DNA of 64,000 bases from positions 384,001 to 448,000 of the forward strand of contig CM000436.1 of the NCBI GenBank assembly GCA_000165345.1. The letters are read 5' to 3'. The position numbers and the translations under genes were made by a program. Every line of letters begins with the position of its first letter. Positions within the stretch are counted from its first letter, which is position 1. The notes beneath the pieces are model-generated. The model did not search any database. It had not been told where the DNA came from and worked only from the letters and a program-made list of their open reading frames with translations. Shown here in pieces: positions 61,601-64,000 of this stretch.

Positions 61601-64000
61601 AAAATCCACCGTATCACAATCTTGTATTTGTTCATTATTAATCTGGCTCATATAATAGCTAAAATAATTATCATTATATAATGAAATTGGTATCCATGGG
61701 TAACTTGATAATATTTCATTCAAAAAAGATGAGTTATATGAACGTCTTGAATATTCATTAGCTATTTGGATGATTGCTCCAGCTCTCATTACATAAATTA
61801 AATGTTTACAATAAAAACAATGCGATGAACTAATTGGATAAATATTTCTATCAACCATCCAACTCAATGGAGATGCATCTGTTTTTGGAGGTAATCTATC
61901 AAAGTTACATCCTACATACCACTGTTCAAGAAGGTTAATAAATTTATTAGTGAATACCCTGAATGCCAAATCTTTATCATTCTCATTTAAATGATCCGAA
62001 TTTTGGACGATATAATCTGATGATATCTCCACAAAGTGAAACCTATCAGATACTTTTGGAAATACCCATTCAACCAATGGAGGCCATAAAGGAGGGACAA
62101 TCGTCAAACCTTTGTATTCAAATGATTTATCGGAATTATATATTGAAGTTTTGTCTTTAACATTTTTCCGATTGCTATTTGATGTTTTTAGTTGGTCAAA
62201 ATTTGAATATGACTTTGAACTAAACTTATTGGACCTTTCCCAGCTTGAATGAAGTAGAATTAAAGATGTCAATGACTTGCTTACCTGAGACATTCTTAAA
62301 GCTACAGAAGTAGGATACACCATAACCTCATTTTCTCTTGTTTCATTCTTGCATCTATTACACTTCAAACTAGATGTGATCATTCTAGAACACCTAGCCA
62401 GTTTGTTCTTGTTTAACAACTCTTCTTCATTTGCATAGCTTTTTGGTAGATCCTTATTGTAAAGTAAAGCCTTTAAAAATGAAGGAGAATAAGTCTGAAC
62501 TACTATTGGAAGCTTAATTAGAAAGCGATTATCATCCTCTACAATGCTTGCCTCCTCTATTGCCAAAGGAGTAATTTTGAGAAGTAGTTTCTGTATATCA
62601 CTATTAATTGCATTTTCCCATCCTTTTTCGAGTAATAAATCAACCTGTTCAGCAATTAATTTAAAAAAAATAGATGGAGTTATCTTCTCAATCTTAAAAT
62701 CTTGGTTAATCATGCTCTTTATTCTGTATGGAGCTATTTTATATACCCTATCACTAAAAAATTCAAATGGGCATACTTTTCCTATTATTTCGGAATACTT
62801 TTGCAAGCAATGTTCTTGAAAGTAACTATCAAACGATTCATCTGAAATGTAAACTTTCACAATACTCGATTTTTCTATAGAAACTCTCTTACCCTCCCTA
62901 GTAGGTATAATTGGCAAACCTGAAATTCCTTCAAATTCTTTCAAACTTTCCACATCTCCTTCTTTCTGAGGAAATAAATAGCTATATAATATTAATAATT
63001 CCTCATCAGAAATACTCTCCAAAAATTTCAAAGGTTTCAATTCTAAAAAAATCTTCAATATATCCAAATTCCTTACATTATATGATGATATTATTTGTGC
63101 TACCAAAACTTGCAACATTTGCAATGGCCTCGTGCAAAGAAAATGCATGCATGTGTGCCCGCCTATCAGTGAGGGGTGCAATACCGGTCTCATGTGGACA
63201 CTCAGCATGTAGAGAAAATTCCAATGTAAATTGCAAAAAATACAAAAACCTTCATGGAAAGTATTGTTTTTTATGCAAAGATCATTGAATTGAATATTCG
63301 TGGAAATTTTATCAAGAAAGCAAAATGAGCCATCAATGTTCATAAACACAGGCTTTTTGACTAACTCATCAATACAAATCGAAGATAATGTGCAATAGTT
63401 TTGGCATTGGTTCAGGTTGTCAAGTTTTGGCGGGAGCCAACTAAATTTAATAAATTCTGAAGTATTTAAAACGAATGGTTTTAAGTTGTAATCAAAGCTT
63501 GATTCCTGCATTGTTTGTAACGGCAAAGACTTTGAAGTGAGTAAATTACTCATAAAAAGAGAATATTTTTGGTTAATTAAGCAAGATTTTCTTGAGCATG
63601 ATAATTTTGGATTAATCATACTAGCAACAAATTGTGGGATTTGTTTCTTGAAAATAACATCAAGAATTGTAGAATTCCAGATATTGTCAGCCATGACATC
63701 CTCTCTATTTGCTGTTAAAATCAAATCTTGGATATTAACATGAAATGGAAGATAGATTCTATGGTTCAAAGGGAACGTACAAAACAACTTTCCTGTAACC
63801 CTTTTATGTTTTCCAAAAGTTGATGAACCAAACGAGAATGAAGATGAGTTTATTATCCTTTCACCTTTATCTATTTCAAGTCTCAAATTTGAATGGAACA
63901 AAGGAAGAGCAATAGACCATACTGTTGAAGATCTTGTAGCTCTATCTCTGAGAGTGGAGCTCTCAAGCTTTTGATCCTCTGAAATTGGTATTTCCCAGTC
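58664..64000 (-). CDS. Very large hypothetical protein (more than 1778 aa), 5'-partial: the reading frame stays open to the window edge
   Basis: The track start at 63901 is TTG, not ATG. I translated the 33 codons upstream (63902-64000) on the minus strand (DWEIPISEDQKLESSTLRDRATRSSTVWSIALP) and found no stop, so the N-terminus lies beyond 64000. It is Cys/His-rich near the N-terminal part. I can assign no family with confidence. Confidence 0.6.
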   Translation of the reverse strand, partial: DWEIPISEDQKLESSTLRDRATRSSTVWSIALPLFHSNLRLEIDKGERIINSSSFSFGSSTFGKHKRVTGKLFCTFPLNHRIYLPFHVNIQDLILTANREDVMADNIWNSTILDVIFKKQIPQFVASMINPKLSCSRKSCLINQKYSLFMSNLLTSKSLPLQTMQESSFDYNLKPFVLNTSEFIKFSWLPPKLDNLNQCQNYCTLSSICIDELVKKPVFMNIDGSFCFLDKISTNIQFNDLCIKNNTFHEGFCIFCNLHWNFLYMLSVHMRPVLHPSLIGGHTCMHFLCTRPLQMLQVLVAQIISSYNVRNLDILKIFLELKPLKFLESISDEELLILYSYLFPQKEGDVESLKEFEGISGLPIIPTREGKRVSIEKSSIVKVYISDESFDSYFQEHCLQKYSEIIGKVCPFEFFSDRVYKIAPYRIKSMINQDFKIEKITPSIFFKLIAEQVDLLLEKGWENAINSDIQKLLLKITPLAIEEASIVEDDNRFLIKLPIVVQTYSPSFLKALLYNKDLPKSYANEEELLNKNKLARCSRMITSSLKCNRCKNETRENEVMVYPTSVALRMSQVSKSLTSLILLHSSWERSNKFSSKSYSNFDQLKTSNSNRKNVKDKTSIYNSDKSFEYKGLTIVPPLWPPLVEWVFPKVSDRFHFVEISSDYIVQNSDHLNENDKDLAFRVFTNKFINLLEQWYVGCNFDRLPPKTDASPLSWMVDRNIYPISSSHCFYCKHLIYVMRAGAIIQIANEYSRRSYNSSFLNEILSSYPWIPISLYNDNYFSYYMSQINNEQIQDCDTVDFCEDLLLSRPSELFIPKINKNLDGIIKHISQIVLNLLPVTLRNGYKIPKSRENNEPCSAHYTLNRTEEDIGNESKLISETLEEVGVTTQISSISLIRILRDYKRVMNIRDNEVVQKSRQIKLKPSYDPDLNHIIELAIFGFGITKEKLFASDWWPSLMDEWSNFDDNSLNRSLHRPSDIEMISDIYHILGHQTDFDISMNIKKVFYNESLLYIPLMKSTLYNWVPIDYNNMVWSDPYDFFHGTFIVLSKFINKSKISNLRPFFLSLVSEQPIHHHYAYLWLRECPNLLKDESKEGKIKFESFINVSINTFLKVFQKMSQSKKNSWWSEFLDNAKIPIKGIYKFLKREQCCVEDFPIGSLRSDSFQIPLAISSSPSSQFFYKDILKVKTLSECYKVTYKVNYGRNIRSHIKFANKGKNKIWLTLEFWGILILLFKHKSLDIYLSIMRILEEKKTFDSEQSLTSKNSNHSVTDCEFCVSESEILEQISNSYEFEPLSVSERYSNANEEIAYQIANWLISFVNTYEVEVDDIELKFDLNINDKHLPKTSRRKIGVLFRQIPNKNSASILLVNKSMDKSNQLKDLYTLLLDPLKGLTGLNSIINIDLYELLILSSSQRLLLLSKHVPILDDLSSKRDERFTVDNVVKEGFELLKKCSRSGCLLRKDTDIENKSLHVEKNDLLSELSIKRVDYNKADNNDPHIKVKNNNTGDYKEMTKNTDVIESNLDSIIKEYIKKNPLSLGNATDESLTIEEITKMVGFWGEKVSFEAIIPNAISRKLTLKSIDHNLIEDYLSRKFVNNYIQNEVIDMEDLKDWTGIEDMKIEDNNIFQDQQRDLFIKCKIKCFKESDTTTIKLIWLNSLNESFLPFDFILLREYFSEEEFSVSRNYKQQVLALIEVKTTKLPIWQFNISGNELLSARKAVDKFKLLIIKDAGSSEPQWALIDDVGGFIQESCTLINGVFEANFSDFCGFNSNTSGVLDNMY
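63141..63201. promoter_or_regulatory. Promoter-like composite cluster inside coding sequence: AAATGCATGCATGTGTGCCCGCC ... AATACCGGTCTCATGTGGACA; an additional TTTTGGCGGGAG lies at about 63425
   Basis: Same GCATGCA + ATACCGGT + CATGTGGACA module as the intergenic promoters, but within the open frame of the 58664..64000 gene. It sits 25-85 bp upstream of an in-frame internal ATG (minus strand, about 63118; MLQVLVAQIISSYN...). Confidence 0.3.

Follow-up and report, generated by a model that had tools for sequence, protein, structure and literature searches.

Cryptosporidium parvum expresses hundreds of mostly antisense long noncoding RNAs (lncRNAs), and the regions upstream of them are enriched in E2F and ApiAP2_1 motifs (PMC12246861; PMC7840661). 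The set described by Li et al. comprises 396 lncRNAs, which have been added to GenBank records CP044415-CP044422, and many of their promoters are held to be bidirectional (PMC7840661). The promoters of C. parvum messenger RNAs (mRNAs) carry the AP2_1 motif TGCATGCA and E2F/DP motifs (PMC3734150; review PMC12246861). In the survey of Oberstaller et al. 2013, upstream regions were defined as non-coding DNA and coding sequence was pruned (PMC3734150); copies embedded in exons thus lay outside its search space. Here we describe a cluster of motifs drawn from this same vocabulary (hereafter the module), at positions 63141-63201 of a 64,000-nucleotide (nt) stretch of C. parvum chromosome 8 (the window; contig CM000436.1, positions 384,001 to 448,000). 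The module is written into the single coding exon of cgd8_1610, a minus-strand gene for a sacsin-like / NO VEIN-like protein, and most probably serves Cp_lnc_353, an antisense lncRNA, as its proximal promoter. The essentials of an intragenic promoter at this locus are already known, as both the lncRNA and three motifs upstream of it have been published (PMC7840661). To these we add motif cores that do not vary across the intestinal species compared, an island of rare codons rich in G or C at the third position, and the lack of the motifs in gastric species; codon usage, conservation of the cores across species and absence from the gastric species are not discussed by Li et al. (PMC7840661).

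The evidence for the transcript consists of the sequences and tables of Li et al. 2021, which derive from stranded RNA-seq and are used here as published (PMC7840661). A comparison of 16-mers from the region with the lncRNA FASTA file gave one match among the entries listed, Cp_lnc_353(+). The published sequence maps exactly to the plus strand of the window, with its 5' end at 63244, and runs antisense to the 5' third of cgd8_1610 (codons 119-595). The FASTA entries are written in the sense of the RNA: Cp_lnc_379(-), a second lncRNA, matches the window solely as its reverse complement. The module ends 43 nt upstream of the Cp_lnc_353 5' end and begins 103 nt upstream of it, and the longest ATG-initiated open reading frame (ORF) in the RNA has 30 amino acids. 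Cp_lnc_353 therefore fits the class of antisense lncRNAs, with a start on the opposite strand beside the module, no coding potential and the enriched motifs within 100 bp upstream. Its expression is 5.29 in oocysts, 5.26 at 0 h, 5.35 at 2 h and 5.59 at 24 h, and rises to 7.93 at 48 h (Table S5 of PMC7840661), when sexual stages appear in culture (PMC7840661). Li et al. place it in lncRNA cluster 4, which they describe as switched on specifically at 48 h, and flag it as up from the asexual to the sexual stage (PMC7840661). It is positively correlated with its sense gene (r=0.67) and with the upstream gene (r=0.79; PMC7840661). No poly(A) signal A(A/G)TAAA was found within 60 nt of its 3' end, which may therefore have been placed imprecisely in the assembly. 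Extra synonymous constraint was not detected in the coding sequence (CDS) that the lncRNA overlaps, where 12.1% of amino-acid-conserved codons vary, compared with 13.1% both after the overlap and gene-wide.

An earlier note on this DNA had described a promoter-like composite within the cgd8_1610 frame and an E2F-like site farther along. All of these motifs are present on the plus strand, including TTTTGGCGGGAG at 63425-63436 (Table 1). The TGCATGCA motif has been identified as the binding motif of the ApiAP2 protein AP2_1 (PMC3734150), and the exact core at 63144-63151 makes this a candidate AP2_1 site. The match of TGCCCGCCTAT to the E2F/DP consensus (TTSSCGCCWAA or TTTGGCGGGAAV) is half-site-like only; its score for motif1 of Li et al. 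is p=4.4e-6. The elements CATGTGGACA and ATACCGGT belong to none of the motif families named by Oberstaller et al. (PMC3734150). In the Table S3 rows listed, Cp_lnc_353 has motif2 (ApiAP2) as ACATGCATGCA at -99, motif1 (E2F/DP1) as TGCCCGCCTAT at -87 (p=4.4e-6) and motif5 (TTGTCCACATK) as GTGTCCACATG at -52 (p=2.4e-7; PMC7840661). An independent motif search of the window located all three sites as well. Among the same rows, motif2 co-occurs in 11 of the 18 lncRNAs that have motif5.

Motifs of this kind are well above chance in the window and mostly intergenic elsewhere in it. Allowing up to one mismatch, TGCATGCATG has 13 matches where 1.9 are expected, and CATGTGGACA has 11 where 1.8 are expected. 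Intergenic copies account for 5/6 exact occurrences of TGCATGCA, 5/8 of ATGTGGACA, 10/13 of TACCGGT and 7/9 of GGCGGGA, and the intergenic share of the window is only ~20%. At least three motif kinds fall within 100 nt of one another in three clusters, which start at 1224, 14662 and 63144, compared with no such cluster in 300 dinucleotide-preserving shuffles; all four kinds occur together at 63144 only. A looser count gives six clusters, five of them intergenic, and 63141-63201 alone lies in coding DNA. Within the 6.36-kb coding sequence of the gene each motif of the module is present exactly once, always in this cluster, and the 5' end of a lncRNA would fall within 100 nt of this unique module by chance in roughly 2-3% of cases. 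These counts agree with the earlier view of the module as promoter-like. The intergenic cluster at 1196-1284 (module A) has ATCCACATG, TGCATGCA, ATACCGGT and TATGTGGACA in this order, with a core order of TGCATGCA, then ATACCGGT, then [T/C]ATGTGGACA; both the order and the spacing match those of the Cp_lnc_353 module. The lncRNA Cp_lnc_352(+), antisense to the ORF at 1404-2321, has its 5' end at 1334, 50 nt past the TATGTGGACA of module A. A search of the Cryptosporidium literature for TGTGGAC returned primer sequences only, and an Rfam scan of the window found no structured RNA at any of the modules.

The host gene is recorded as 'sacsin like HSP90 chaperone domain' (EAK89372.1), and its identifier, cgd8_1610, is taken from PMC4407392. 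Three NCBI assemblies and Logan contigs agree on a model of one exon and 2120 amino acids. The part inside the window corresponds to residues 343-2120 plus the stop codon, and the gene start lies at window-equivalent position 65026, 1026 nt past the window edge. The protein has an N-terminal sacsin-type HATPase domain (Pfam SACS, residues 40-250, 45.2 bits, cut-off 32.8) and a C-terminal NOV_C domain (residues 1987-2079, 42.8 bits, cut-off 22.1), and with this pair it is a sacsin / NO VEIN-like protein. Besides the protein itself, a full HMMER search of representative proteins found one relative, C. muris CMU_025550 (2423 amino acids, 41% identical). The minus-strand frame runs without a stop from the window edge at 64000 to the stop codon at 58664-58666, a total of 1778 codons. 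As the earlier note had claimed, no stop interrupts it between the in-frame ATG at 63118-63116 and the edge, a distance of 294 codons. The same note had suggested that annotations starting the gene at 63118 might be missing about 290 codons. This does not apply, since every model found in the intestinal species is a single exon of 2115-2120 amino acids, and no shorter cgd8_1610 model, such as one starting at 63118, occurs in any assembly examined. A literature search with the cgd8_1610 gene identifiers returned a polymorphism table only. The pattern C595-x2-C598-x2-H601 ... H617 ... C626 (window 63145-63240) is invariant in seven Cryptosporidium species within an otherwise variable stretch; these Cys and His residues between 595 and 626 may form a metal-binding patch of the sacsin-like protein, and it would overlap the promoter module.

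The seven species used for the conservation footprint are the intestinal C. parvum, C. hominis, C. tyzzeri and C. meleagridis and the gastric C. muris, C. andersoni and C. serpentis. The footprint leaves out C. ubiquitum, C. felis and C. baileyi, and a C. canis fragment of 279 amino acids does not include the module. Read as codons of cgd8_1610, the four motif cores are AGT GTC CAC ATG, A CCG GTA T, GGC GGG and TGC ATG CA. Over the four intestinal species none of the 32 core bases varies, compared with 8 of the 29 bases between the cores (Fisher p=0.0015). The same holds when only degenerate third positions are counted (0/8 in the cores vs 5/11 between them; p=0.045). The segment that contains the module is itself fast-evolving, with amino acids varying at 22% of codons among the intestinal species compared with 10% gene-wide. 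It also departs from the codon usage of its surroundings. Of 16,022 windows of 21 codons in the ORFs of the window, the module has the highest G+C content at third codon positions (GC3), with 15/21 codons ending in G or C compared with 22% overall. The cores contain GTC (5.3% of Val codons), CCG (4.9% of Pro codons), GGC (8.5% of Gly codons) and GGG (9.3%). Also rare are CTG, CCC and ACG beside the cores, at 3.5-5% of the codons for their amino acid. In the gastric species the codons for the homologous residues are of the ordinary, AT-rich kind, and the whole gene is free of the motifs. M636, the residue encoded by the ATG at 63118, is present in all four intestinal species; the gastric species have neither this Met nor the motifs.

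On the simplest reading of these alignments, the intestinal lineage assembled the promoter within DNA that is translated, or the gastric lineage lost it, and selection on the DNA would now keep it. Four substitutions specific to C. parvum (CDS positions 1824, 1848, 1860 and 1895) are clustered at the module; each of them changes AT to GC, and none falls in a core. They represent 4 of the 44 such substitutions in the gene and fall within 72 nt (63132-63203), where ~0.5 would be expected; promoter tuning, biased gene conversion and chance are all conceivable causes.

The E2F-like TTTTGGCGGGAG is closer to motif 4 of Oberstaller et al., TTTGGCGGGAAV (PMC3734150), than the half-site in the module is, but it is downstream of the lncRNA start. 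It sits inside the lncRNA, at +182 to +193 from the 5' end. The earlier note had listed it with the promoter-like cluster; at 182 nt downstream of the 5' end, it does not precede the lncRNA. The core of the site does not vary among the four intestinal species, C. hominis has a single synonymous change beside it, and the gastric species are without the site. The site is encoded with the rare codons CTC CCG.

In the arrangement that we propose, transcription of the plus strand would begin at ~63244 and proceed back through the 5' third of cgd8_1610, from codon 595 down to codon 119. The promoter would be built from ordinary C. parvum promoter sites, namely the ApiAP2 site TGCATGCA, the E2F/DP-like CCCGCC, ATACCGGT and CATGTGGACA, the last of which would act ~50 nt upstream of the start. 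The 61 bases of the module would thus have a double role, as protein code and as promoter. We infer that members of the ApiAP2 and E2F-type factor families bind the module, that Cp_lnc_353 requires it, and that the antisense transcript may affect the sense gene; the positive correlation between the two argues against simple silencing.

Several points weigh against this interpretation. The 5' end of Cp_lnc_353 comes from a StringTie assembly of short reads, as opposed to cap analysis of gene expression (CAGE) or 5' rapid amplification of cDNA ends (RACE), and may be in error by tens of bases. Li et al. did not call ATACCGGT for Cp_lnc_353. The orientation of motif5 relative to lncRNA starts is 13 '-' vs 6 '+' among the Table S3 rows listed, a bias that is not significant, so the strand that the module serves cannot be deduced from orientation. 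The conservation tests compare four close species (94-98% identical) and involve small counts. Protein constraint could explain some of the conservation of the cores, since V615, L616 and C626 do not vary within the genus. In sporozoites, the assay for transposase-accessible chromatin with sequencing (ATAC-seq) finds open chromatin without AP2 motifs (PMC11761812); this objection is tempered because Cp_lnc_353 is silent at the sporozoite stage.

Other explanations of the module would dispense either with its coding role or with its role as a promoter. That the segment is untranslated, as an in-frame intron or as the relic of an intergenic promoter between fused or mis-joined genes, deserves next to no credence. 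The minus strand does offer GT..AG candidates (GTGTCC...GATAG, 39 nt, and GTATTTTTTG...GATAG, 81 nt), both of them divisible by three, and the composition of the segment differs from that of the neighbouring coding DNA. However, the module peptide LSVHMRPVLHPSLIGGHTCMH aligns gap-free with NNTIKSVLHPQISIFRTCVN of the gastric species. The gastric orthologues in C. muris, C. andersoni and C. serpentis are only 36-42% identical in protein, yet the alignment is residue for residue, and for this reason we consider the segment translated. V615, L616, H617, P618 and C626 are invariant in the segment in all seven species, and the candidate introns span the VLHP and Cys residues. Gene models are single-exon throughout, the single-gene architecture is common to all seven species, gastric ones included, and six C. 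parvum assemblies are base-for-base identical at the module. The gap-free orthologues, the invariant residues inside the segment and the absence of a stop in 1778 codons rule out the intron and gene-boundary ideas. The earlier judgement that the region is genuinely coding is upheld by these alignments, and the frameshift, stop or gene split that it had considered at this place does not exist. It is also very improbable that the motifs arose by chance or as a by-product of the protein code and that the nearby 5' end of the lncRNA is a coincidence or an assembly artefact. The invariance of C595, C598, H601, V615, L616, H617, P618 and C626 in seven species does imply that some core bases are protein-constrained. 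Yet the gastric species retain these residues with AT-rich codons and without the motifs, and most core bases encode residues that vary across the genus (SVHM, RP, GG). Rare codons ending in G or C are fixed at all eight degenerate core positions, whereas 5 of 11 neighbouring positions vary. The absence of such clusters from the 300 shuffles and the overwhelmingly intergenic location of the same motifs elsewhere in the window also speak against a by-product, as does module A, from which the 5' end of another published lncRNA is spaced in the same way.

The earlier note had proposed an internal promoter for an N-terminally truncated protein. The part of this proposal that stands is the presence of a promoter-like element inside the gene; the transcript on record is the antisense Cp_lnc_353(+) and not a truncated sense isoform. 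It is nevertheless conceivable, if unlikely, that the module drives sense transcripts, alone or bidirectionally along with the lncRNA. Such transcripts would encode an isoform of 1485 amino acids (M636 to residue 2120) without the N-terminal sacsin/HATPase domain and with NOV_C. An in-frame ATG lies 23 nt past the module and is kept in the four species that bear it, and of the four motifs, three are palindromes or have intergenic copies in either orientation. In addition, Li et al. regard many C. parvum lncRNA promoters as bidirectional (PMC7840661), and the read counts of the lncRNA and the sense gene correlate (r=0.67), as firing in both directions would give. An assembly guided by annotation would fold a truncated transcript into the full-length mRNA, so that its absence from the lists is uninformative. 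On the other hand, the gene models in the intestinal species are all 2115-2120 amino acids long, no sense 5' end or isoform was found in them, and the sole transcript documented to begin beside the module is on the opposite strand. The ATG at 63118 would be the first in such a transcript only if the 5' untranslated region (UTR) were shorter than ~25 nt, and the module itself holds two Met codons (M612, M627). Less likely still is a fuller version, in which a promoter that arose de novo in an exon of the intestinal lineage fires in both directions at the sexual transition and gives an antisense RNA over the ATPase part and a sense transcript for the M636 NOV_C isoform. If true, an exon-embedded switch would turn the output of the gene from full-length to truncated protein, and selection on transcription factor sites would override codon usage and dictate part of the protein. 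The promoter of Cp_lnc_353 remains the reading that we prefer.

Table 1. Positions of the module, its motifs, the overlapping gene and lncRNA, and related clusters in the window
Feature	Position	Strand	Basis
Composite promoter module, codons 608-629; putative proximal promoter of Cp_lnc_353	63141..63201	+	motif cluster, position
TGCATGCA palindrome, AP2_1 / ApiAP2 motif; codons TGC ATG CAT (C626 M627 H628)	63144..63151	.	exact core match
TGCATGCATG	63144-63153	+	sequence match
CCCGCC, E2F/DP-like half-site; codons GGC GGG (G622 G623)	63158..63163	+	sequence match
ATACCGGT, palindromic core ACCGGT; overlaps AGA CCG GTA TTG (R613 P614 V615 L616)	63181..63188	.	sequence match
CATGTGGACA, motif5 of Li et al. 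(TTGTCCACATK) on the other strand; codons AGT GTC CAC ATG (S609 V610 H611 M612)	63191..63200	+	sequence match
E2F-like TTTTGGCGGGAG; codons TGG CTC CCG CCA AAA (W530 to K534)	63425..63436	+	sequence match
In-frame ATG (M636), proposed start of truncated isoform	63116..63118	-	sequence
cgd8_1610 CDS, sacsin-like / NO VEIN-like protein	58664..64000	-	open frame, gene models and Pfam
Antisense lncRNA Cp_lnc_353 (alias CPATCC_0001703), 1427 nt	63244..64000, on to window-equivalent 64670	+	exact mapping of PMC7840661 sequence
Intergenic motif clusters	~1196-1284, 8746-8826, 14661-14760, 18534-18616, 55513-55567

The window as a whole has an AT-rich sequence, with a GC content of 24-38%, and is dense with long intron-free ORFs of eukaryotic protein type, whose products include WDR3, RPC5, a GH31 glucosidase, PP2C and an MFS transporter. 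At two of the intergenic clusters, modules C (14661-14760) and E (55513-55567), CATGTGGACA points to the plus strand, where no gene lies downstream; the neighbours, WDR3 and the MFS gene, are on the minus strand. Modules C and E may drive unlisted antisense RNAs at the 3' ends of these genes, and no published lncRNA lies beside them among the lncRNA FASTA entries listed. CP141125.1 contains an extra gene model of 86 amino acids at 54771-55437 on the minus strand, between the MFS gene and an ORF of 1295 amino acids; the distance from this model upstream to module E is 76-130 nt. Cp_lnc_379(-) maps to ~48500-49053 on the minus strand, antisense to the plus-strand ORF at 47478-49190; its sense gene is a CCCH-like finger domain nucleoporin according to Li et al. 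(PMC7840661). A tRNA gene at 49425-49498 on the minus strand (67.8 bits) is the sole Rfam match in the window at the gathering threshold. Long trinucleotide runs within ORFs, (CTT)n at 48038-48100 and (GAA/GAT)n at 50040-50220, encode acidic low-complexity tracts and dominate the repeat and inverted-repeat output.

The motif cluster in cgd8_1610 should thus be taken as the promoter of Cp_lnc_353, an annotated lncRNA, and not as evidence of a mis-annotated start or a proven isoform. It provides a clean and quantifiable case of bases with double duty in a very compact genome: the cores of four transcription factor sites are frozen over four species and written in rare codons within a fast-evolving coding segment, and the gastric clade is without them. 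Synonymous recoding of the cores could remove one lncRNA and leave the protein untouched. The locus also suggests that motif islands with rare codons and high GC3 in Cryptosporidium coding sequences could flag intragenic promoters that surveys limited to upstream regions exclude.

Compared with the antisense lncRNAs of Li et al., Cp_lnc_353 is typical in being antisense and stage-specific and in having E2F-like, ApiAP2_1 and motif5 sites within 100 bp upstream (PMC7840661). Its particular features are a start deep in a 6.4-kb coding exon and coverage of the 5' third of the sense gene. Our search of the Cryptosporidium literature for intragenic promoters found nothing relevant. The gdv1 antisense RNA of P. 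falciparum and the meiotic antisense transcripts of yeast are stage-specific RNAs that start within a gene or at its end, and they repress the sense gene. Cp_lnc_353 is like them in its intragenic antisense start and in being switched on at a developmental transition, and unlike them in that its expression is positively correlated with the sense gene (r=0.67). Transcription factor sites in coding exons are the subject of the 'duons' of Stergachis et al. 2013, where codon choice reportedly departs from the genomic norm. The bases of the module likewise encode amino acids, form motifs like transcription factor sites and use off-norm codons. Whereas duons are isolated sites that modulate their host gene, the module would be a complete and compact promoter of a separate, antisense transcript.

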